DNA of 59,646 nt from Minisyncoccota bacterium (GCA_036170235.1 JAVHOW010000001.1:1-59646), one strand, 5' to 3'. Counted from the first letter of the stretch, positions 5,877 through 58,940 are shown. Translations and numbers: made by a program. Notes: a model not told the origin generated them from the sequence alone.

Positions 5877-6953
5877 CTAAAATGGGTTTTTTGCGCCACG
5901 AATCTCAAAATGTAAGTGGACTCCAGTCACGCCAGTTACTTTTCCAGAGTGACCCATAAGAGCAATATTTTGACCTTGATCTACATGTTGACCAACTGTT
6001 ACAAGATTTTTCGAGAGGTGACTATATACTGTTTGTGTACCATTATCATGAGAAATAATGATGAGATTTCCATACCCGCCATTCCAACCACCATTCGCAC
6101 TTGAAATAACAGTACCTGCGGCAGCGGCATAAATAGGTGCTCCGAGGTAGGATGCAAGATCGACACCGTTATAACCATGAAGACCTTGCGTCTTAATACC
6201 ACCGACAATAGGACGAATGTAATAGCCGGCGTAGCTAGGACCGTTAGTGTCGTGTGCGGGATTGGTGCTTTTTGCAACAGATTTGGTTTGTACTAGTGGC
6301 TGTTCTGCATCAGGAATAATAATCGGCTGACCAGCAACAAGAATAGAATCTAATGAAATATCATTGTACTGTAAGATTTCATCAACATCAGCCTTGTATT
6401 TGATGGCAATGCCTTTGATGGTGTCGCCTTTTTTAATCGTATAGTTGATACCGGTAATAGGAAGGATGATAAGAGTCTGTCCAGAGCGAAGCGCGGTAGT
6501 ACGACTAATATTATTTGCCCACATAACAGTATTAGTAGAAACGCCAAACATTTTAGCTATCCCAGAAATTGTATCACCGTCACGAACAATGTATGAACTA
6601 ATTTGCGTACTTGTGGTATCACTTGTAGCACCTTCCGAAAGAGTCGCATCGGCTACAAGAGCATTACCTACAATAGGAGACACTCCTGAAGCTTTTTCTG
6701 TACTGGGATCAAAACTAGCGGCGTACTGTAGTAATGCTAAGGTTTGTGAATTACCATGAGTCTGATTTTGAGTAACTTCTGCTGAAACCTGACTGCCACC
6801 AAAGATGGTATTTATGTATGAAACGAGACCGGCGTGGGCGGTCTCTGAAAATGTAAATATGACAGTTATGGATACGAAAAAAATGGTTGTCCATGTAACA
6901 ATACGTTTTGAAATAGAAGAATATTTTTTTGTGGGAGAGGTCGAAAATTGCAT
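5877..6953 (-). CDS. Secreted LysM-repeat / M23-family peptidoglycan metallopeptidase
   Basis: N-terminal TM/signal helix, two LysM repeats (YIVRDGDTISGIAKMFGVS.., YTIKKGDTIKGIAIKYKAD..) and M23 motifs (HGYNGVDL, GHSGKVTGVTGVHLHFEI). Confidence 0.9.
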   Translation of the reverse strand: MQFSTSPTKKYSSISKRIVTWTTIFFVSITVIFTFSETAHAGLVSYINTIFGGSQVSAEVTQNQTHGNSQTLALLQYAASFDPSTEKASGVSPIVGNALVADATLSEGATSDTTSTQISSYIVRDGDTISGIAKMFGVSTNTVMWANNISRTTALRSGQTLIILPITGINYTIKKGDTIKGIAIKYKADVDEILQYNDISLDSILVAGQPIIIPDAEQPLVQTKSVAKSTNPAHDTNGPSYAGYYIRPIVGGIKTQGLHGYNGVDLASYLGAPIYAAAAGTVISSANGGWNGGYGNLIIISHDNGTQTVYSHLSKNLVTVGQHVDQGQNIALMGHSGKVTGVTGVHLHFEIRGAKNPF

Positions 6954-10360: not shown

Positions 10361-11383
10361 CTAAAGCGATGATGAACCTGTCCCCGGAGAAATCATTCCT
10401 TCCGATGGCATAGTTTCACAATACGGACATTCTCCTTCAACGCACTCACCTCCTTGTTGATATTCACCAAGAAGCTCCGTAGTAAAAGGAATATTATATC
10501 CTAGATATATTTGAGACCCAGTCTGATATGTTAATAGACTGACATAAGTTGGTCCAAGTGGCTCAACCCCAATCCACCAATTTTCAGTTTGAGTGCAATA
10601 CATACTAAATAAAAGCGCTCCACCAAACGGAGTTCCCCCTATTGCCATAGCTTTTTTTGGAGAAAATACTTCCTTAAATGGTTTAATAAGATCTGCAAAA
10701 AAATTTTGCACTGGTTGAGGAGACTTTGAAATACTACTCCTAACAACTTCAATAAATTTTCCTTTGAGATCTGTTGTTGTTGCCGCCTGAGTAATAACTA
10801 TTTTTTTAACTGAAGCAATTTTTTCTTTTGATAGCCCCTGTTTTTTACCAACCCTATCTATTGCCGCAAATATAAGGTCTAGATTTTCTTGATTTGGATT
10901 TTTTGTAACTATGTTACCTTGATTCGAAAAACTTGTTTGAACAACTAAGTTTTGTATTTTACTTGCAGACATCAAAGTACTAGTCGAAATTAAGGAACTT
11001 GCCGTTAAATTCACCTCTTTAGCTAACTTATTTAACATTGTTATGGTTGATTGACCAACAAAACCAGTACCAGAAATTAAACTATTAGGCACAAGAATGT
11101 CATATTTATATTTTTCTTGAAAACGAATAACCGCATCACGAGTAAGAATACCAAAATACAAGGTTTCTTGACCAGATGATCCTGGACCACTTGACTGCAC
11201 TTGAGTGTTCGGATCCTTATTAAGGATTTTCTGCAATTCGCGAACATCTTCACCTAACAAACCAACCTTCAGTGTTCTAGTAAACAAAAAACTTGACGCA
11301 TGTGTGATTTGATGTAAAAAAACAATGTTTACAAGTACACAAAGTGCGAGACTTGTCAGTAATATACGAGATGTGGTATTCAC
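10361..11383 (-). CDS. Anchored/secreted protein with peptidoglycan-binding repeat and Cys-rich C-terminus
   Basis: N-terminal hydrophobic helix. LKVGLLGEDVRELQKILN...GILTRDAVIRFQEKY resembles PG_binding_1. C-terminal GGECVEGECPYCE. Divergent from the T4SS-like operon. Confidence 0.6.
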   Translation of the reverse strand: MNTTSRILLTSLALCVLVNIVFLHQITHASSFLFTRTLKVGLLGEDVRELQKILNKDPNTQVQSSGPGSSGQETLYFGILTRDAVIRFQEKYKYDILVPNSLISGTGFVGQSTITMLNKLAKEVNLTASSLISTSTLMSASKIQNLVVQTSFSNQGNIVTKNPNQENLDLIFAAIDRVGKKQGLSKEKIASVKKIVITQAATTTDLKGKFIEVVRSSISKSPQPVQNFFADLIKPFKEVFSPKKAMAIGGTPFGGALLFSMYCTQTENWWIGVEPLGPTYVSLLTYQTGSQIYLGYNIPFTTELLGEYQQGGECVEGECPYCETMPSEGMISPGTGSSSL

Positions 11384-11471
11384 ACAGTCAATTATAGCAC
11401 TATAGTGAGTATGCTGAAAAATACACTATCCCCAGAAACATAAGCAAACATATGCTTATTACTATATAATT

Positions 11472-12368
11472 GTGAACATGCCCTTGTTCTATCCGCACAA
11501 ACAGACCGCGATCATTTTCATAATATGTATCCTGGGTGTTTTGGGCACTATCTGGTATGTAGGAAGAGGAAATGCGCGTAGCCAACAAGCCTCAAATGTT
11601 ATGTCTGGCCAACAAAATACACAAGTAATACAAGTTGGAACTGCTATTGCCACCACAACCGACTGGCAAAAACAATTTTTTGCAAATTCGACCTCAACCA
11701 AACTAAAAAACAGTACGCTGACAACAAACGATCCGAGCACCAATGAACCAGAAACTGTCACGGGTCAATTTGGTAAAAAGTTTTTTGAGCAATACATGTT
11801 ACTCAAGCAAAACAATCTGACAGAAGACCCAACGGCAATAAAAGCTGTTGTTGATCAGAATATTGGTGATATCGTTTCTACTGCTCCACAAGCGCAGGTA
11901 TATGATATAAGAAATGTTTTAATTGCCACAACGGACAACCTTGCGGCTGAACGAACTTACGCAAATACCGTTGGAGAGATTCTTTCTTTATATGACCCAA
12001 AAGGGGACGCGGCAACTATTGCTACCGAGGCATTAGACAAAAATGACACCAGCAGAATCAAAGAAATTGAAGACATCGCCAATTTGTATTCTATAATGCT
12101 CAAAAAACTTTTGGCTGTGCCCGCACCAAAAACAATAAATCAAAATCATCTGGCACTTATCAATGCCGTAAGTTCGATGGTTTTTGTTTCGCAAGGCATG
12201 AGCAAGGTCTTCATAGATCCGTTACAAAGCATAGTTTCTTTGGCGGTATATGAAAAATCTTTAACCTCTCTACAAAATTCATTGCTCGATCTCAAATACA
12301 ATTTTTCACAAAAAGGTATCCAATTTTCAAGTAATGAACCGGGTATTATTTTCACTCTTATAAACTAA
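11472..12368 (+). CDS. Membrane-anchored protein, unknown function (first gene of T4SS-like block)
   Basis: 298-codon ORF, N-terminal TM (AIIFIICILGVLGTIWYV), 1-nt gap to the next ORF. No family recognised. Confidence 0.6.
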   Translation: MNMPLFYPHKQTAIIFIICILGVLGTIWYVGRGNARSQQASNVMSGQQNTQVIQVGTAIATTTDWQKQFFANSTSTKLKNSTLTTNDPSTNEPETVTGQFGKKFFEQYMLLKQNNLTEDPTAIKAVVDQNIGDIVSTAPQAQVYDIRNVLIATTDNLAAERTYANTVGEILSLYDPKGDAATIATEALDKNDTSRIKEIEDIANLYSIMLKKLLAVPAPKTINQNHLALINAVSSMVFVSQGMSKVFIDPLQSIVSLAVYEKSLTSLQNSLLDLKYNFSQKGIQFSSNEPGIIFTLIN

Positions 12369-12369
12369 T

Positions 12370-14061
12370 ATGAAGCAAAACAAAAAGACCATTGCAAAAA
12401 ATATTCTACTAACATTGCTCATAATAAGCATGTCACTATCGTCGATAATGCTGTATCGTCCACAAACTGTGCGAGCACAAGTAGGCACCGTACCGATTGG
12501 TACCATGCTCAACTTTCATACTATAATGAGCCATCTAAAAGACTTTGTTCTTGACAGACTCGCAGTCATGGTCGCCAATCAACTACTCCAAAGAATGACT
12601 GCTAGCATTATTACGTGGATCAATAGCGGTTTTCAGGGTAGCCCCGCGTTTATTACAAACCCGAAAGGCTTTTTTCTTGACGCGGCAGACCAAATCACTG
12701 GGGAGTTTTTAGACAAAGAAGGTGGACCTTTGTCACAATTGTGTACACCTTTTAGTTTTGACATACGATTAAATCTTGCCCTTAATCAGTCAACATACAC
12801 AACCACACGATATAGTTGTACGCTTGGTAGAATTGTCGCTAACAGTCGAAATGCTATAGCTACGGCTGGACAGAATAGTGGTGTAACAATTTCTGGTGAT
12901 CCAAATGGTGCGAATATAGGCAACTTCATAAACGGTGACTTTTCGCAAGGTGGTTGGGCGGGTTTTATTGCCTATTCGACTGAACCACAAAATAATCCAA
13001 TCGGAGCAACTCTTATGGCACAGAGTGATTTGCAAGGTAGGATTAGCCAAAAACACGCAGCTATAAACACCGACTTAAATCGTGGACAAGGATTCATGTC
13101 ATGGCAAAAATGTACCGATGTAACATCTGGTTACACAAGTGGTTTGTATAATGGGGGAGAACTTGGTTTGACGGTTGCACAGGAGCAACAATTGAGAAAA
13201 TTTGGCAATCAGACGGCCGTCACTGGACAAACTACAGATGGAACCCAAATGCCAACAAGCGTACAAAAGAAAGTTGATTCAAAAACTGGCATGGTGTCAT
13301 ACCAAGACTGCCAAACCCAGACGCCTGGTTCGTTGATAGGAGGATCGCTTCAGAGAACACTAAACATTCCGCAAGACAAACTCGTACTTGTTAAAACGAT
13401 TAGTGACAGCGTCGACGCCATATTGGGCGCATTGGTAAATCAAATGCTCGACAAAGGACTTGGTGCATTGAGTAACCGAGGTTCTAGTTCTAGTGGTGGA
13501 AACAAGTCGTACCTTGTACAACTTGTCGAAGAAGCAAGTAGTACGAACGCCGCCAATACGCAAAGTGGTAGAGCTTCAAGCTCAATGGGTGATACTGCAA
13601 AAGACACAGCTTTAATATATTCACAAACTGTTGACTTACTAACTATAAGTAAAAACAACTACTTAAATGCAAAAAATTGCTTCGCAGATAAACTGGCAAC
13701 TAGACCTCTCTTGGAAGCATACTTGAAAAAATACGCCCAGGACCAGATGAATGCGATTGACCTTATCGTCACAAGAGATATTGACCCATTGATTGCCACA
13801 ACTACAACTAAAGAACTAACAAGCCAAAGACAAGCGGCTAGTTTCGATGCTGCAACAGCGGGAGTGACGAGTTTCTCCATGCTTGATACAGCTGTAAATT
13901 CTATAGCAATAATAACTCAATCTGCCCTAAGTGATGCTGCTACATCCCGACAAGAATACAAAGACACCCAAACAAAAACGACCGCGTGGAACACTGACGC
14001 GCAAAGGTTCCAAGGTCTTTGTGATCAGTTTCCAGATTCAGTAAATATACCGAAAAAATAA
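12370..14061 (+). CDS. Secreted/anchored protein, unknown function (T4SS-like block)
   Basis: 563-codon ORF, N-terminal signal/anchor (ILLTLLIISMSLSSIML..VRAQ), tightly coupled to neighbours. No family recognised. Confidence 0.6.
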   Translation: MKQNKKTIAKNILLTLLIISMSLSSIMLYRPQTVRAQVGTVPIGTMLNFHTIMSHLKDFVLDRLAVMVANQLLQRMTASIITWINSGFQGSPAFITNPKGFFLDAADQITGEFLDKEGGPLSQLCTPFSFDIRLNLALNQSTYTTTRYSCTLGRIVANSRNAIATAGQNSGVTISGDPNGANIGNFINGDFSQGGWAGFIAYSTEPQNNPIGATLMAQSDLQGRISQKHAAINTDLNRGQGFMSWQKCTDVTSGYTSGLYNGGELGLTVAQEQQLRKFGNQTAVTGQTTDGTQMPTSVQKKVDSKTGMVSYQDCQTQTPGSLIGGSLQRTLNIPQDKLVLVKTISDSVDAILGALVNQMLDKGLGALSNRGSSSSGGNKSYLVQLVEEASSTNAANTQSGRASSSMGDTAKDTALIYSQTVDLLTISKNNYLNAKNCFADKLATRPLLEAYLKKYAQDQMNAIDLIVTRDIDPLIATTTTKELTSQRQAASFDAATAGVTSFSMLDTAVNSIAIITQSALSDAATSRQEYKDTQTKTTAWNTDAQRFQGLCDQFPDSVNIPKK

Positions 14062-52515: not shown

Positions 52516-53820
<1,305 letters not shown>

Positions 53821-53891
53821 TTAAAATAATAATGATGCATTATATATGCCAGTTGGTATTGCACGCAATAGGGGATTTCGGAAGTGACATA

Positions 53892-54356
53892 TCAAAAACC
53901 CAAGCGCTCCAGAACGTGCTTGAGAAATGGTTCATGATGTTCGGTTTCGGCAATATAATTGAGCATAACTTCACGGACTTTTTCAGGATCTACTTCGTCA
54001 ATATATATGACGATGAATGGCATGAAGAGTTTTCTGGATTTGATGATGATCTTTGGAGGGAACTCATCATGCGGAACCCAGAATGAATCAAGCGTGAGAA
54101 AAGGGTAGAGAACATCATTTGCCAAAATCCCACGATCATTGATCTCGTAAGATACTATTTGTGGAGGATGTGACGCGTGTAACACAAGCGCAACCGCCGC
54201 GACTATTACGAATATGCCGGTAATAACATTTCCAAAAATAAAGGCGACCGCGGCTATAGCAAGCGTAATTATGCCAACAGCCCAATACCAGTCGGATTTT
54301 TTTTCGACATGGAGATGTTCTGGAGCACTCCAATAAATAAGAGCTTCTGTTGCCAT
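53892..54356 (-). CDS. Small 2-TM membrane protein, unknown function
   Basis: 154 codons. Two adjacent TM helices (WYWAVGIITLAIAAVAFIF, GIFVIVAAVALVL) plus a soluble C-terminal domain. Confidence 0.6.
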   Translation of the reverse strand: MATEALIYWSAPEHLHVEKKSDWYWAVGIITLAIAAVAFIFGNVITGIFVIVAAVALVLHASHPPQIVSYEINDRGILANDVLYPFLTLDSFWVPHDEFPPKIIIKSRKLFMPFIVIYIDEVDPEKVREVMLNYIAETEHHEPFLKHVLERLGF

Positions 54357-54461
54357 GCGTGAATTATAGCATGAGTGTTAATATACGCTTACAAATATGT
54401 GCATAATAATTTTGGCGGGGAGTGTGGGACGATGTCCGAATAGCGTTAAGTCTAGCATATA

Positions 54462-54492
54462 TACAATAAACCCCAGACCGAATTGTCTGGGG
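54462..54492 (-). terminator. Rho-independent terminator of 54527-55207
   Basis: 8-bp stem CCCCAGAC/GTCTGGGG. On the minus strand it is followed by TTTATTGT. Confidence 0.65.
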
Positions 54493-54526
54493 TGAAGTTA
54501 TACGCATATCTTCAAAGCGTTTCAAA

Positions 54527-55207
54527 CTACGACGACCGTCTTGCCGCGATCAACTGGTCCATCTGCTCAATGTGTTTTCGGGCTTCAGCAAACAACTCTG
54601 CTCGCTTGGCCTCAATCCCGAATTTGCGGTTATGCCGCATCGTTTCATCGAGCTTTCCACTCCATTTTTCAATGAAGTTACCGAGGTGGATGATGTCGTG
54701 AAGCATACGTTCCGTCTTGACACGAACGGCATCGAATTTAATTTCTGCATCGAGTATCTGCACGGCGCAGAAGACCAATTCATCGTGCGTATCCTCCTCG
54801 TTGTATTCATGGCTTCTACCACTCGGATACAACCCTTCGACGGCATCTCTGAAGCCCTCAAGTATCGGAGTACACCTTTCGGTGACCTCTTTAATCTTGA
54901 GGACATTCTTACCAACTACGAACTTGAAGTAGGCGAGGAACGGAACCATGATTGCCGCCATCACGACCAGCGAAAGATATGGACGATTGTAGTGGATGTT
55001 GATTATCAGTGAAATGATAAGAGCAACTATCCCCGCAACCAACATAACTTTCATGCAAGTCATAATGAGACCGTAGGGGTCCTTGTCGCTGACCTTCTTA
55101 TATTCCTCGTTCGTGTCGGCCAATTTCACGTTGTTCTGTTTCTCGTATCCAGTGATGAGGCTGGGGCTAACGGTCTTCAACAGGTCATCAATGTTATGAT
55201 TTTTCAT
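54527..55207 (-). CDS. 2-TM membrane protein with helical cytoplasmic domain, unknown function (G+C-rich gene)
   Basis: Longest of four overlapping ORFs. It has its own promoter (TTGACA-17-CATACT, minus strand, about 55338-55366) and terminator. Two TM helices (VMLVAGIVALIISLIINI, LSLVVMAAIMVPFLAYF). Confidence 0.6.
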   Translation of the reverse strand: MKNHNIDDLLKTVSPSLITGYEKQNNVKLADTNEEYKKVSDKDPYGLIMTCMKVMLVAGIVALIISLIINIHYNRPYLSLVVMAAIMVPFLAYFKFVVGKNVLKIKEVTERCTPILEGFRDAVEGLYPSGRSHEYNEEDTHDELVFCAVQILDAEIKFDAVRVKTERMLHDIIHLGNFIEKWSGKLDETMRHNRKFGIEAKRAELFAEARKHIEQMDQLIAARRSS

Positions 55208-55389
55208 GTCAACATCTTTCTATTTTTTGTCTTTTAGGATCATAGTCTTGCGGACATCACTGTTGGCTTGCGACCACCAGTAACACGATTTCTCGTTATG
55301 TAATCCAAAATAGTCAGACAGCTATTCTGTCATAAGTATGGCATTTTCAACACTATTTGTCAATACTTTGACGATTTCGTCAAATATGT

Positions 55390-55790
55390 GCTGTAGTATG
55401 GCTCTGTTAAGCCACCCTGTAAACCATGGTCGTTATTCGCCATCCGTGCCTACAGCACTTTCGGAAAGTGATGCGCAGGACGCTTGTAGATTAGGGCATG
55501 TCACCTCAGCCCATAACCACGGATATCATTCGCGACTAGCACGCATCGGTACTGCGTAGTGTCCCACTGTCTGTGTGTTTACAGACTGTGGGAAAACACG
55601 AGGCAGTACGGATGTGTGCGTTAAAGTCGCGTCACATACGCTATCAGGGCTGAGGTGGGCATGCCCGTCTCTCTCATACCATGCGCCCTATCAAGCGGCC
55701 GCGCATGACTTTCCTGCGATTGAAAGTGCTGTTGGGGCGGGTGGCGCCACTATCCACCATTTTGCCTTGCATTGTAATCTGGCAGGTATA
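55390..55790 (-). ncRNA. rnpB: RNase P RNA (bacterial ribozyme); ends approximate
   Basis: Minus-strand reading contains CAGGAAAGUC (55715-55706; CR-I/P4 5' strand), GAUAGGGCGCAUGG (like E. coli CAUAGGGCAGG) and ACAGGGUGGCUUA (55419-55407; CR-V/P4 3' strand), with AAGUCAU pairing to GUGGCUU. Long covarying helices: GGGCAUG-CC-CACCUCAGCCC with GGGCUGAGGUG-A-CAUGCCC; CAUGCGC/GCGCAUG; 12-bp hairpin 55562-55591. G+C-rich, no credible ORF. Confidence 0.75.
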
Positions 55791-56062
55791 AAATACAGGT
55801 TAGGTACAGTAACGATCTTTGATTTGAACTCTGCACGCTAAATCAATCAAAATTCCTCAACAAATAAATTACTAAATCCCTTTATGGGCTAGCACCATTC
55901 ATTTTCGATACTGTGGTCGGTATCAATTATTTCATTACCAGCTAGAAATTTCAAATACAAAAACTTAGAGGTCCAAAATAATATAAGTGCTCACATAGAA
56001 ACCTAGTCACCAGGTCTCTTTTTCGTTTATCTCAAAGTCTTTTTCTGTACCTATGAAAATAG

Positions 56063-56215
56063 GTGCCTTTCTCATACCCACAAAACTTAATCGACAGGAT
56101 CACTGCTTACTACAAAAGTAAGGGTGTAACTTTGACACCTGAACAAGCCGAGGAGTATCTAAACTCCCTGGCTGATCTATACGAGTCGTTCATTGAGTTT
56201 GCCAAAATTCCATGA
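56063..56215 (+). CDS. Possible 50-codon ORF translationally coupled to Rep (GTG start, ATGA overlap)
   Basis: Not in the ORF track. (M)PFSYPQNLIDRITAYYKSKGVTLTPEQAEEYLNSLADLYESFIEFAKIP-stop. The TGA overlaps the Rep ATG. Confidence 0.3.
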   Translation: MPFSYPQNLIDRITAYYKSKGVTLTPEQAEEYLNSLADLYESFIEFAKIP

Positions 56216-57270
56216 ATACTCCAGAAAACACAACTCATTTTCTGGTGCACAAAAGCGGTGAGATGGAGCCGGTGGCTCCTACTGACATCCGTATCAGTCG
56301 CTGGGACTGGGAGAAGCAGGAGTATAACTATCTGTCCGCATTGTCGGTAAAGGTCTATGACAAGGATTTGAAAATCTCCGATTCATATCAAGTACCACGG
56401 CATATTGAAAAGAAAAGTGGCAAGCGCGGCGTCATCAAAAAGTATTCATTCGGAGCCAGTCGCCGCTGTAAATTCTTCATGCGTAATACCGGACACTTGA
56501 TGAAGGTGATGGTCACGCTCACGTATCCGAATGACTATCCCATGGACGGCACAACCGTCAAAGCTCATCTCCACAAATTCCTGCTCTGGCTCACGTATCA
56601 CGGTTACAAATACATCTGGGTACTGGAATTTCAAGAAAGGGGCGCTCCGCACTTTCACATTCTCGTAGACAAGGAAATTCCTCATCAGGATGTAGCAAAA
56701 TCTTGGTATCGAATTGTCGGCTCCAATGATGAGAAGCATTTGAAAGCCGGCACTGAAGTTCGAGCTGTCAGAGCCAAAGATTCAATCGGATATTACCTCA
56801 CTACCTACATGGAAAAAGCTAGACAAAAATCAGTGCCTCCGGAATATGAAAAGGTCGGTCGATTCTGGGGATCATCAAAAGGATTACTGGCTGAAAAGAA
56901 GATGAGGATATATGGCAAGCGCGAGGATATTTACAGATTGAAAAAGTCACTAAGAATAACCCGCCGATACGATCAATCGCAAAAGAAGCAGTGGGAGAAG
57001 CGATCTAGAGCTAAGGGAAAGAAGAGAAACAAATTTAAGAAATATTACAGTAGAGCATATTCATTACACATCATTAACAGCGACAAAATGAAAGACGAAT
57101 TATCAAAACACAACATCGAGCTATTTCCTTACAGGTTAGCGGACATTGCGCCCGTCCCCGATTCGCGCGAGCGGCGGGGCGGGCGCATGACGCCTGTGAT
57201 TGCAAAGACACAGGAAATACAATTCCCAGAAACCTACGAGGAATGGTTGGATCGAAAAGGTCTATATTGA
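56212..57270 (+). CDS. Rolling-circle replication initiator, HUH superfamily (two-tyrosine type)
   Basis: Motif 1 VTLTYP, motif 2 APHFHILV (HUH), motif 3 IGYYLTTYMEK (Y-x3-Y), basic C-terminal tail. Confidence 0.75.
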   Translation: MNTPENTTHFLVHKSGEMEPVAPTDIRISRWDWEKQEYNYLSALSVKVYDKDLKISDSYQVPRHIEKKSGKRGVIKKYSFGASRRCKFFMRNTGHLMKVMVTLTYPNDYPMDGTTVKAHLHKFLLWLTYHGYKYIWVLEFQERGAPHFHILVDKEIPHQDVAKSWYRIVGSNDEKHLKAGTEVRAVRAKDSIGYYLTTYMEKARQKSVPPEYEKVGRFWGSSKGLLAEKKMRIYGKREDIYRLKKSLRITRRYDQSQKKQWEKRSRAKGKKRNKFKKYYSRAYSLHIINSDKMKDELSKHNIELFPYRLADIAPVPDSRERRGGRMTPVIAKTQEIQFPETYEEWLDRKGLY

Positions 57271-57400
57271 TGCCCCTTGGTTTATCTATACAGTCATATC
57301 AGAAGAAAGTAACAACCAGAAAATCATCAAAATCACCCAAAAGTTATCCTCAATTTATCAACTATTTGCCTAATCTAAAACAAAGCGTAAAATTATCACC

Positions 57401-58867
57401 ATGAAATATATTCTCTACTGTCGAAAATCCACTGAATCCGAAGACCGCCAAGTCCTCTCACTTGAATCACAAGAAAAGGAGCTTATGGCTATTGCCAAGA
57501 ATAACAACCTCGATGTTATTAGCGTATTCAAAGAAAGCAAATCTGCCAAAGCTGAAGGCCGTCCAGTATTCAACCAAGTGCTTAAAATGATCACCTCCGG
57601 CAAAGCTGATGCCATTATCTGCTGGAAGCTAGACAGGCTAGCTCGCAACTTCATTGATGGCGGCAAGGTCATTGACCTGCTTCAAAAGGGAGTAATCAAA
57701 GAAATTAGAACGTACGAAACTACACATTTACCAACTGACAACGTGCTTCTTCTTGCTGTTAACTTCGGTATGGCCAATCAATACATTCGTGATTTGAGTA
57801 CCAATGTTAAAAGAGGTATTCGTACCAAACTAGAAAACGGCCAGTGGCCAAATTACGCTCCATTCGGTTACAAAAACGACAAAGCCGACAAGACGATCAA
57901 GATCGACACAAAAAGATCGCCGTATGTTAAGCGCATCTTTGAATTGTATTCAACTGGAGCCTACACCTTGAAACAGGTTGAAGATATCCTCTACTATGAA
58001 GGATTGAGAACTAAGGGCGGATTCAGATTGAAAAAGTGCCAGATTCATCGTTTCCTACAAAACAAATTCTATGTCGGTCTCATGGAAAAAGATGGCAAGC
58101 TGTATCCCGGAAAACACAAGCCAATCATCTCTCAAGCCCTATTCGATCAAGTGCAGGAAATTCTCAATCATAAAAGCAGTCCCAAGCCTCAAAAGCATTT
58201 CTATTCTGCTCGAGGATTCTTAACCTGCGCATCTTGCGGTTGCATGCTTACTGCTGAAACTCAAAAAGGATTTATTTACTACCACTGCACGAATGGAAAA
58301 GGCAATTGCGATGAGCACAAAACCTATCTGAAAAATACTGATGTCGATCAATTTCTTTCAAAGATGTTTCTTAACCTGAAATTTGACGAGGAATTCATTG
58401 AAATTAGCTACGAAGCTTACAAGGCTATAAACGATGACAAGAATAACTACGCCAAGTCTTCATTAGAAAGCCTCTCAAACGAATTAAACGCCCTTACAGA
58501 GAAAGAATCACGTCTCGTTGATGGATATGTATCTCAACTCATTTCAGAGCAGATTTACAAGCAGAAAAAGTTAGAGATTGAAAACCAGCGAGCCACCCTC
58601 AACAACCAGATTACAGAAATCGAGGCAAAAGGCGGTGTCTCCGAAGTTACTCTCGAACAGATCAAGAATGTATTTCTGGAAGGCAGTAGAGCCGCGGAAA
58701 AATATTTGCTCGTTGACGAACAAGAAAAACGAAATATGCTGAAAAAGTTACTTTCGAACACTTACATCCAAAACCAAACTGTGGCTCAGTACCAATTCAA
58801 AAGTCCATATCAGGTGCTTGCTTTGGCACCTAAAAATGGTGATTTAACACAGATGCGGATGGGGTGA
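57401..58867 (+). CDS. Large serine recombinase (integrase)
   Basis: N-terminal resolvase catalytic domain (ILYCRKSTESEDRQ, SLESQ, ..WKLDRLARN), recombinase domain, Cys-rich zinc ribbon (CASCGC..YYHCTNGKGNCDEH), C-terminal coiled coil. Confidence 0.88.
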   Translation: MKYILYCRKSTESEDRQVLSLESQEKELMAIAKNNNLDVISVFKESKSAKAEGRPVFNQVLKMITSGKADAIICWKLDRLARNFIDGGKVIDLLQKGVIKEIRTYETTHLPTDNVLLLAVNFGMANQYIRDLSTNVKRGIRTKLENGQWPNYAPFGYKNDKADKTIKIDTKRSPYVKRIFELYSTGAYTLKQVEDILYYEGLRTKGGFRLKKCQIHRFLQNKFYVGLMEKDGKLYPGKHKPIISQALFDQVQEILNHKSSPKPQKHFYSARGFLTCASCGCMLTAETQKGFIYYHCTNGKGNCDEHKTYLKNTDVDQFLSKMFLNLKFDEEFIEISYEAYKAINDDKNNYAKSSLESLSNELNALTEKESRLVDGYVSQLISEQIYKQKKLEIENQRATLNNQITEIEAKGGVSEVTLEQIKNVFLEGSRAAEKYLLVDEQEKRNMLKKLLSNTYIQNQTVAQYQFKSPYQVLALAPKNGDLTQMRMG

Positions 58868-58940
58868 GATTCGAACTCACGGTCCCGTGAAGGACGACGG
58901 TTTTCAAGACCGTTGCTTTAGACCACTCAGCCACCCATCC
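58856..58940 (-). tRNA. tRNA-Ser (anticodon UGA), class II with long variable arm
   Basis: Minus strand: acceptor GGATGGG/CCCATCC, anticodon stem ACGGT/ACCGT with loop CTTGAAA, 16-nt variable arm, T stem GTGAG/CTCAC with TTCGAAT, discriminator G. Confidence 0.93.

Follow-up and report, generated by a model that had tools for sequence, protein, structure and literature searches.

Three kinds of mobile DNA already known come closest to the element described here: serine-integrase integrative elements, integrative elements that use rolling-circle replication (RCR), exemplified by pSAM2, and integrative mobilizable elements (IMEs). The large serine recombinases (LSRs) of the first kind, among them phiC31, Bxb1, the Listeria A118/LI integrase, SPbeta SprA/YokA and SCCmec CcrAB, join a resolvase and a recombinase domain to a zinc ribbon with a coiled coil, and those characterised mostly act within protein-coding genes or gene ends such as rlmH. 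pSAM2, of about 11 kb, pairs the HUH rolling-circle initiator RepSA with a tyrosine integrase (Int) at tRNA-Pro, where a long identity segment duplicates the tRNA end, and also carries Xis and an FtsK-like transfer protein. According to a review of IMEs (PMC5704250), those with a serine recombinase disrupt dispensable genes, and tRNA 3′ ends are the targets of those with a tyrosine integrase. Set beside these is a 4,440-bp site-specific integrative element, 54419-58858, at the 3′ tip of the host tRNA-Ser(UGA) gene in a 59,646-nt stretch of DNA (hereafter the window) from a Minisyncoccota bacterium (GCA_036170235.1 JAVHOW010000001.1:1-59646). It carries an HUH initiator, here called Rep, together with an LSR, a combination rarely described at a tRNA tip, and no description of its family was found in the literature. 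New here are an LSR clade that targets tRNA tips, an integrase gene that spans the attachment site attP, and the coupling of this gene to a G2P-class Rep and an unclassified rod-like structure.

The element shares with the serine-integrase systems the LSR domain architecture, a very short attachment (att) core lacking long direct repeats, a zinc-ribbon motif 5 bp nearer the centre in attB, and a small accessory gene that may encode a directionality factor. Unlike the characterised LSRs, however, it targets the extreme 3′ end of tRNA genes, at several isoacceptors and amino acids, and leaves the tRNA intact. It also departs from them in having a single conserved attB half-site, namely the tRNA, and an integrase open reading frame (ORF) that crosses attP, and its passenger is a 4-6 kb Rep element rather than the phage of serine-integrase prophages. 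With pSAM2 it has in common a small size, an HUH rolling-circle initiator, integration at a tRNA 3′ end and expected replication of the circle after excision; its host phylum, its serine recombinase and its 4.4 kb set it apart, and it has no tyrosine integrase, long identity segment, Xis or FtsK-like protein. Firmicute IMEs (the Tn4451 family, streptococcal IMEs) offer another likeness: in minimal form they too combine a single recombinase with a single HUH-type DNA-processing protein and cargo that varies, and they show tandem accretion and decayed copies at the target. Unlike serine-recombinase IMEs (PMC5704250), the LSR here uses tRNA 3′ tips non-disruptively. The HUH proteins of Firmicute IMEs are Rep_trans/MobT or canonical relaxases, whereas this Rep is of the REP_ORF2-G2P type, and mobilisation genes cannot be identified: Pfam, PHROGs and NCBIfam searches found no transfer, coupling or canonical relaxase gene in 54419-58858.

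Insertion at the 3′ tip of tRNA-Ser(UGA)

All four states of the attachment site were found: attB without the element (L068), attL and attR in the window, and attP-type junctions (L007, L042 and L075/L076). A 4-nt GCGG is the sole sequence common to them, and this short core without long direct repeats is the signature of a serine recombinase; the att quartet likewise assigns the recombinase to the same element as the Rep. An earlier note on this DNA, made from the sequence alone, had proposed a search of related genomes for an empty site, and one exists. It was reached through homologues of the left-flank gene orf154: in three loci (L068, L069 and L070) the 247 nt that separate RuvX from orf154 contain no gene other than an intact tRNA-Ser(UGA), which lies about 50 nt from orf154 and is followed by RuvX. 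In the orientation of the window, attB of L068 reads ...GATCAATG-GCGG-ATGGGGTGAGATTCGAAC... The left junctions all consist of a variable flank followed by GCGG and GGAG(Y)(K)TGGGACGATGTCCGAATAGC, the right junctions all of the LSR 3′ end (...GAT), GCGG and the tRNA 3′ end, and the attP-like junctions in L007 and L042/L063 of the LSR 3′ end, GCGG and the P′ motif. The core of the Val-type L013 is GTGC at both of its junctions. The encoded tRNA 3′ end reads ...CCGCCA at the empty site (L068, 7947-7953) and ...CCGCAT at the occupied one (window, 58855-58858), so that integration removes only the encoded CA of CCA together with the trailer. The crossover is at the discriminator end of the tRNA, which is otherwise left intact, and the occupied tRNA-Ser must consequently rely on CCA addition.

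The limits of the element follow from its closest host relative, L053 (amino-acid identities of 84% for enolase, 82% for orf154 and 91% for RuvX), whose homology with the window spans 52526-54458 and 58829-58940; the interiors are unrelated, that of L053 being 1.05 kb without Rep or LSR. The edges of this homology, taken with the GCGG cores, give a P′ arm of 40 nt (54419-54458) and a P arm of ~27 nt (58829-58854), and the arms around the cores (54415-54418 and 58855-58858) delimit the 4,440 bp. A 33-nt stretch at the left end, 54415-54447, is 97% identical to L005 and recurs in eight loci, 1.4-3.9 kb upstream of Rep. Within the window, no direct repeats of the tRNA end serve as element borders. 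An 11-nt resemblance of the leader to the T-arm (GATTTGAACTC, 55820-55830, 10/11 matching) was dropped as chance, sitting as it does in a stretch that is not conserved. Also rejected was the idea that the element carries the tRNA with it, suggested by homology to L005 that continues through the tRNA: the two loci have different isoacceptors, whose stems show compensatory changes, and the empty site retains its tRNA.

The core idea of the earlier note, an integrated HUH-Rep replicon that uses a serine recombinase beside tRNA-Ser, thus stands, while its size, limits and flank do not. An element of about 3 kb with its left edge at 55842 becomes one of 4.44 kb that starts at 54419 and runs to 58858; the chromosomal neighbours are orf154 on the left, in place of the supposed rnpB, and RuvX beyond tRNA-Ser(UGA); and a cargo gene, said to be lacking, is present inside. 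As the earlier note had proposed, attL and attR could be defined by comparing loci; they share GCGG alone. Its observation that the minus-strand tRNA-Ser(UGA) overlaps the stop end of the LSR gene by 12 nt (58856-58867) is confirmed. From the left, the order is P′ arm, orf226 on the minus strand, rod, invariant 18-mer, promoter-like element, orf50-Rep-LSR operon and P arm, the last situated within the final codons of the LSR gene:

54415-54418, no strand: attL common core GCGG, the left crossover region, with the host flank (orf154 promoter side) to its left
54419-54470, plus: P′ arm (GGAGTGTGGGACGATGTCCGAATAGCGTTAAGTCTAGCATA...), a motif at the left end of about 36 copies, which would encode the LSR tail GVWDDVRIALSLAYIQ and a stop when excised
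54470-54493, minus: terminator-like hairpin downstream of orf226 (consensus scan)
54527-55207, minus: orf226, a variable cargo gene of 226 aa (ORF), in a slot filled by different genes in each relative
55335-55363, minus: promoter-like site TTGACA-17-CATACT with TG, towards the cargo gene (consensus scan; block conserved in the window, L005, L007 and L012)
55438-55746, plus: rod-like structured domain, candidate single-strand (lagging-strand) origin (fold, covariation, 15/15 close relatives)
55740-55757, plus: invariant block GGTGGCGCCACTATCCAC at the 3′ foot of the rod, candidate Rep recognition or nick region (alignment)
55767-55809, plus: promoter-like element TTGCAT-N16-TAAAAT followed by AGGTACAG, towards orf50-Rep-LSR (conserved columns of alignments A3/A6)
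55810-56062, plus: AT-rich leader, including a hairpin (55907-55924) scored terminator-like; two leader types in the family
56063-56215, plus: orf50, a small helical protein with a GTG start; LSR-family partner and candidate directionality factor or regulator
56212-57270, plus: Rep, HUH rolling-circle initiator with Y195-x3-Y199-x2-K (PF23343, phrog_3419, motif invariance)
57401-58867, plus: LSR (integrase), 488 aa (Pfam/PHROG), its last codons (MG and stop) read from the antisense of the tRNA
58829-58854, plus: P arm inside the LSR 3′ end, where L053 homology begins (58829); L007 and L042 have this sequence fused to P′
58855-58858, no strand: attR common core GCGG, on the tRNA strand CCGC, that is, the last two acceptor bases, the discriminator and C74
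58856-58940, minus: host tRNA-Ser(UGA), the integration target (ARAGORN; Rfam, 62.8 bits; same tRNA in L068 without the element)

How one recombinase clade might address so many tRNAs is suggested by a motif that the tRNA arm and the P′ arm have in common. The sequence T(T/C)CGAA, in the tRNA the T-loop, starts 16 positions from the core in 15 tRNA arms and 21 from it in 36 P′ arms, and the same 5-bp shift is seen in the Val-type L013; the comparison covers the tRNA/P′ half of the site, the other half of attB (host flank, B arm) not being conserved. Zinc-ribbon motifs of LSRs are known to lie 5 bp nearer the centre in attB than in attP (Rutherford et al. 2013, PMC3783163), a relationship that the spacing of the motif in P′ and tRNA matches. 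We infer that this LSR clade uses the T-loop sequence of the tRNA as the zinc-ribbon domain motif of attB, which would explain the range of its tRNA targets. A variant of the left junction occurs on the contig with the closest orf154 (92%; L067, 1-267), which stops 267 nt upstream of that gene: there TGTCTATTGTACAAAATTCGAAC... follows ...TTTTGCGG in place of the P′ motif, and the locus may hold a different type of cassette at the same core.

The integrase, its tail and its small partner

The LSR exceeds the cut-offs of three Pfam families, Resolvase (2.7e-22), Recombinase (3.3e-13) and Zn_ribbon_recom (6.6e-6), and matches the phrog_95 integrase at 3.8e-83, in agreement with the large serine recombinase read from the sequence earlier. 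In NCBIfam its matches to XisF/Ccr are partial, and its closest solved structure is SPbeta YokA (9dxh). The N-terminal Y-x-R-x-S-T motif (YCRKST) is kept in 115/120 LSR relatives. A search returned 941 proteins at E<=1e-100, and the C-termini of the 120 closest clusters sort by what follows the core: 52 end in ...RD(L)DSN(Q/P)..., 38 terminate at the tRNA or shortly within it, and 15 have an attP-type tail. The 'DSN' tails are the antisense translation of the T-loop GATTCGAAC. The abutment of LSR and minus-strand tRNA recurs in every related locus that has both ends and is visible in the C-termini of the LSR family; it is far beyond chance. Such an overlap may also hide these genes: L005 holds an intact 505-aa LSR ORF (11187-12704) for which the public annotation has no called gene, probably owing to a 64-nt overlap with the tRNA, and LSRs overlapping tRNAs may be under-annotated.

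The reading frame of the LSR runs across attP. Joined to P′, the P arm extends the protein of the window from 488 aa (ending ...TQMRMG) to 502 aa (ending ...TQMRGVWDDVRIALSLAYIQ), so that integration swaps the C-terminal tail. The same holds for seven other elements, whose circular form would give a conserved (G/R)(A/V)WDDVR(I/M)AL tail and whose integrated form has variable tails read from the antisense of the tRNA. An attP inside a reading frame and C-termini that depend on the state of the element recall the partition of SSV1-type integrases and the immunity systems of the mycobacteriophages BPs and Brujita. Unlike those cases, in which tyrosine integrases split a whole gene or remove the degradation tag of a repressor, the element swaps only the last 4-20 residues of a serine integrase.

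The small ORF of 50 codons that the earlier note had placed upstream of Rep, coupled by an ATGA overlap, is confirmed as orf50, the start of Rep overlapping its end. Two Rep-less cassettes of the same LSR family (L077 and L079) carry a 54-aa ORF directly 5′ of the LSR that is 42-56% identical to orf50 and its relatives. Judged by this distribution, orf50 travels with the LSR and not with Rep, and its homologue beside the LSR in Rep-less cassettes makes it a candidate directionality factor or regulator. It matches no known recombination directionality factor or other family above threshold in Pfam, PHROGs, NCBIfam or PADLOC. A role for orf50 in setting the direction of recombination, like a role for the tail swap, is thus put forward as a suggestion. 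The cargo of such Rep-less cassettes differs: L077 (1028-4607), with the LSR and its orf50-like partner but no Rep, also encodes a TrwB/coupling-protein-like gene (a faint match) and a PemK toxin, and the P0343 contig, a Rep-less cassette of the same LSR family, carries BubE and ThiF/DUF6791 genes.

All three core genes are under strong purifying selection, with ratios of non-synonymous to synonymous substitution (dN/dS) of 0.045-0.10. The window was compared with seven or eight other copies for Rep (0.055-0.095) and the LSR (0.045-0.065), and in two comparisons for orf50 (0.07-0.10), at dS of 0.75-1.4. For Rep, this constraint indicates a functional protein and nothing beyond that; nicking-joining and replication are predicted activities.

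Rep and the structured rod upstream of it

Rep belongs to a single Pfam family, PF23343 REP_ORF2-G2P, at 55.3 bits (cut-off 27.8; E 8.7e-15), and matches the phage rolling-circle initiators of phrog_3419 at 1e-11; RepSA (PF20199) is matched weakly and below threshold. Across 21 aligned sequences, with identities down to 41%, motif I (LTYP; LTLTYP) is conserved and H147/H149, Y195, Y199 and K202 are invariant. This conservation sustains the label of two-tyrosine HUH Rep given earlier to 56212-57270, which thus also passes as an HUH/Rep protein by profile. A sequence comparison with solved structures gave a marginal match to 7vg8 (E 0.07) that was not used.

Upstream of the operon lies a GC-rich block that folds into a 310-nt, long imperfect hairpin, with DNA folding energies of -102.6 kcal/mol (z -12.5) on the plus strand versus -87.9 on the minus strand. 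An alignment of 13 sequences yields 86 consensus pairs that are 95% paired, 34 of them with compensatory double changes; every measure of covariation exceeds 500/500 column shuffles, and the signal collapses when partners are slid by 1-3 columns. The cells that are not Watson-Crick number 70 G:U against 16 A:C on the plus strand, an excess which identifies the functional strand of the rod as the Rep-sense strand. In 15/15 loci with enough upstream sequence, the rod stands 370-690 nt upstream of Rep in the same orientation, whatever lies further to the left.

This block had been taken for the host RNase P RNA gene, with the element wedged between rnpB (GC-rich 55380-55800) and tRNA-Ser and starting to the right of rnpB. 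Its strong structure and some short minus-strand resemblances to P4 motifs (GGAAAGTC... and ACAGGGTGGCTTA), seen by eye, lent that identification some appeal. Rfam searches of both strands, however, returned no RNase P match at gathering thresholds, at E<=1 (4.6 kb) or at E<=10 (a 651-nt slice), only chance miRNA-like matches; the GGAAAGTC stretch is not conserved in L001, L003 and L007; the wobble asymmetry marks the plus strand as the one that folds; and the domain lies within the att-bounded element and accompanies Rep regardless of the host flank. The chance that this is rnpB is close to nil, and the identification is refuted for practical purposes: the GC-rich block is an element-borne rod.

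Its place suggests another function. The rod adjoins the presumed leading-strand origin on the upstream side, which is the classical order of single-strand and double-strand origins (sso and dso), and folds on the strand expected to be displaced. The two-tyrosine or HUH initiator and the compact genome are shared with pC194/pMV158 plasmids and with Ff/plectrovirus modules, and the placement of a strong, strand-specific structure just upstream of the presumed leading-strand origin and the rep promoter recalls that of sso and dso. Unlike those plasmids, which in their classical form have neither an integrase nor a chromosomal attachment site, the element is integrative, and its rod is assigned to no described sso type. 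In a search for the Rep origin, the sole invariant candidate for the nick region is GGTGGCGCCACTATCCAC (55740-55757), at the rod's 3′ foot. The complement of the invariant block contains ATAGTGG, which was considered as an f1-like nick region; at just 7 nt, and on the strand opposite to the one expected from Rep, it was treated as chance. The hairpin at 55907-55924, weakly likened earlier to a nick site, does exist, with 7 bp and a terminator-like score, but is not confirmed as a nick-site candidate, as the leader that holds it is not conserved. After the invariant block come a conserved TTGCnn-N16/17-TAnAAT and AGGTACAG; GCGCCACTATCCAC is identical in 8 loci, and the block is invariant in alignment A6. 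These columns point to a putative promoter at 55767-55809, although the segment fails the sigma-70 criteria of the scanning tool.

The class of the Rep and the layout around it raise the question of a phage origin. Ff phages have a structured minus-strand origin beside the plus-strand origin on the viral strand. The rod and the invariant block share this layout, and the only Pfam family of Rep is that of Spiroplasma plectrovirus ORF2 and inovirus G2P, its PHROG match being to a phage RCR initiator. The locus could then be the remnant or satellite of an integrated filamentous (inovirus- or plectrovirus-like) single-stranded DNA phage, with Rep as its gene-II-type initiator, the rod as minus-strand origin, packaging signal or both, and a helper to supply the virion proteins; a phage-like flavour in some of the cargo, such as a Tad4-like anti-Thoeris protein in L044, fits as well. 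Yet some 15 full copies, of 4.07-6.52 kb, showed no morphogenesis ATPase (pI/Zot), coat protein or adsorption protein in Pfam and PHROG searches. In IMG/VR the Rep alignment picked out two distant relatives only and the attP pattern nothing, and the cargo genes are unrelated between copies. With virion genes in no copy, a filamentous-phage remnant is unlikely.

We hold it highly probable that the locus is instead an integrated mobile replicon of Rep and LSR at tRNA-Ser that excises and replicates as a circle. The LSR, perhaps with orf50 as directionality factor, would cut the element out to give a circle of some 4.4 kb, whose LSR gene would read through attP and gain the conserved WDDVRIAL tail. 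Rep would nick near the invariant block and drive rolling-circle replication, the rod on the displaced Rep-sense strand serving as a single-strand origin for lagging-strand priming. Finally, the LSR would recognise the universal T-loop motif in a tRNA gene and insert the circle there again.

Relatives, cargo and mobility of the family

The family is large and occupies many tRNAs in Patescibacteria. About 20 related copies were found at seven different tRNAs with unrelated flanks, so the gene order is not fixed, where an identical order in all relatives would have counted against the earlier note; full modules sit at tRNA-Ser UGA, ACU, CGA, GGA and GCU, and more distant ones (LSR 55-57% identity) at Arg-CCG and Val-GAC. 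A metagenome scan for the P′ motif added 28 further loci. Element sizes range from 4.07 to 6.52 kb. The minus-strand genes that occupy the slot from P′ to the rod change from one copy to the next; they encode DUF7736, a DKNYY protein, a Tad4-like anti-Thoeris protein, a ParB_N protein together with a sigma-54-type AAA+ protein, and others lacking an assignment. In L041 (2350-4758) the ParB_N protein stands beside an AAA+ protein with the sigma-54-interaction domain, and in L044 (3772-4404) the Tad4-like protein belongs to the type I Thoeris inhibitor family (E 5.7e-33). The slot of the window is filled by orf226, which has two predicted hydrophobic helices; searches of Pfam, PHROGs, PADLOC and NCBIfam gave it no match above threshold, and none of the related loci has a homologue.

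Some relatives have shed the core genes altogether. Mini-cassettes of 1.0-1.4 kb with both arms but neither Rep nor LSR occupy the same tRNA-Ser in L053 (4419-5467) and L040 (8607-10031), the latter holding only the last 26 LSR codons; they are probably moved in trans and are candidate non-autonomous elements. L053 encodes only small membrane-protein-like ORFs. In L012 (2676-6358), between orf154 and an intact Rep copy, tandem decayed P′ motifs (3855, about 5080 and 6316) and rod fragments (2676 and 4789) bespeak repeated insertions at one tRNA site, and L064 has tandem remnants too. L008 shows a different kind of rearrangement, a 186-nt direct repeat flanking the element (5941-6126 and 12634-12819; 98% identical) in which 19 nt from the 3′ end of tRNA-Ser are combined with a GC-rich insert, a piece of a different tRNA and a terminator hairpin; the LSR of L008 is frameshifted around 12296-12302. 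In L007 (2644-13449), L046, L049 and L056, the P′ motif has RuvX (minus) on its left. L007 has orf154 (plus) to the right of tRNA-Ser (minus), so that the block of element and tRNA is inverted between its flanking genes relative to the window and L068; this could reflect recombinase-mediated inversion or a different ancestral orientation of the tRNA. About 3 kb from the empty tRNA-Ser site of L068 (11757-13159), and likewise in L069, an RVT_1 reverse transcriptase beside a bAvd-like gene looks like a diversity-generating retroelement pair.

Decay and widespread occupancy invite the thought that the locus is a fixed, domesticated chromosomal feature, immobile, with Rep and recombinase kept because they serve the host, for instance by rearranging the tRNA locus. 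The same site is indeed filled in most relatives of the lineage (window, L006/L052, L008, L012, L040, L053, L057 and L064), several of them with decayed or rearranged copies, namely the frameshift and repeat of L008, the tandem remnants of L012 and the residual LSR codons of L040. Domestication sits badly, however, with a clean empty site, with near-identical modules at five different tRNA-Ser isoacceptors amid unrelated flanks, with copies in the attP state, with purifying selection on all three genes across copies, and with interiors exchanged between conserved arms. The empty site and the multiple targets largely refute it, and we regard it as very improbable.

Evidence on the free form comes from P0241, a protein cluster of 33 member sequences with 90% LSR identity and an attP-type tail, found on L075/L076 in two samples, 3300045356 and 3300045347. 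These contigs are 100% identical over 3,172 nt, together measure 4,326 nt, and read orf52-Rep-LSR-GCGG-diverged P′-cargo with no tRNA; they are an attP-state copy. The earlier note had suggested looking for circular contigs, and only attP-state contigs were found. Several observations weigh against the excising replicon. L075 and L076 do not close, no exact terminal repeats that would mark a closed circular contig were found in L001-L005, L039-L066 or L075-L079, and the attP pattern is absent from the IMG/VR viral collection. The attP-like junctions of L007 and L042 lie inside chromosomal contigs and are tandem or remnant copies, not circles. Occupancy at tRNA-Ser may be old and mobility infrequent, seeing that L053 has the same site filled by a different cassette with homologous flanks. 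A crossover at the central CG of GCGG would be palindromic, which is unusual for LSRs. Even elements with Reps of about 90% identity can differ in their leader (55810-56062), of which two unrelated types occur. The rod, for its part, is suggested to be a single-strand origin by its position, strand and structure, and could be an RNA or an origin of transfer.

That last option leads to the main rival, in which the element is an integrative mobilizable one and Rep chiefly a transfer relaxase. Rep would nick an origin of transfer made up of the invariant block and the rod and pilot single-stranded DNA through the type IV secretion or pilus machinery of Patescibacteria; there would be no plasmid maintenance, and replication would take place only during transfer. 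Precedent exists, for RCR-type initiators act as relaxases (MobT) in integrative and conjugative elements and IMEs of Firmicutes, and IMEs may carry serine recombinases (PMC5704250). A preprint on type IV secretion systems (T4SS) of the candidate phyla radiation (CPR) reports an almost complete lack of known relaxases, a vacancy that such a Rep could fill, and the coupling-protein-like gene of the Rep-less L077, faint as the match is, sits with the same LSR and an orf50 homologue. Close copies (87-92% Rep identity) occur in metagenome-assembled genomes assigned to Paceibacterota, Saccharibacteria and Taylorbacteria; such labels on small contigs are unreliable and not to be over-read as host range. 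On the other hand, no coupling-protein or T4SS gene was found in the element of the window or in the other Rep-bearing copies examined, and by class Rep is a two-tyrosine replicative initiator of the phiX174/G2P kind and not a Rep_trans/MobT protein. We accord Rep as a relaxase a real but minor share of probability, and prefer the excising, circle-replicating replicon.

A bolder and rather doubtful extension would make the family a phylum-wide cassette system of Patescibacteria. An integrase clade that reads the T-loop would dock interchangeable 1-6 kb cassettes (Rep-bearing elements, Rep-less minis, anti-defence or partition cargo) at many tRNA 3′ tips, the tail that spans attP would report the free or integrated state and, with orf50, set direction, and Rep would double as the 'missing' relaxase of the relaxase-poor CPR T4SS.

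For annotation, the findings mean that the structured, GC-rich DNA upstream of such a Rep should not be called rnpB, and that LSR genes overlapping a tRNA can be missed by gene callers. We know of no replicating or integrating vectors for CPR/Patescibacteria. The plasmids and mobile elements of these bacteria are barely characterised, which has been called a significant gap (PMC12023590). The element offers a complete, sequence-defined list of parts for a CPR vector: the integrase and Rep, attP (about 70 bp) and attB (the 3′ end of tRNA-Ser), together with candidates for the directionality factor and the origin. Dozens of variants exist in nature, and the family could help to build genetic tools for hard-to-study CPR bacteria. 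For the biology of the family, it illustrates non-disruptive targeting of tRNA tips by a clade of serine integrases, with the T-loop as probable half-site, and an integrase whose own C-terminus is rewritten by integration.

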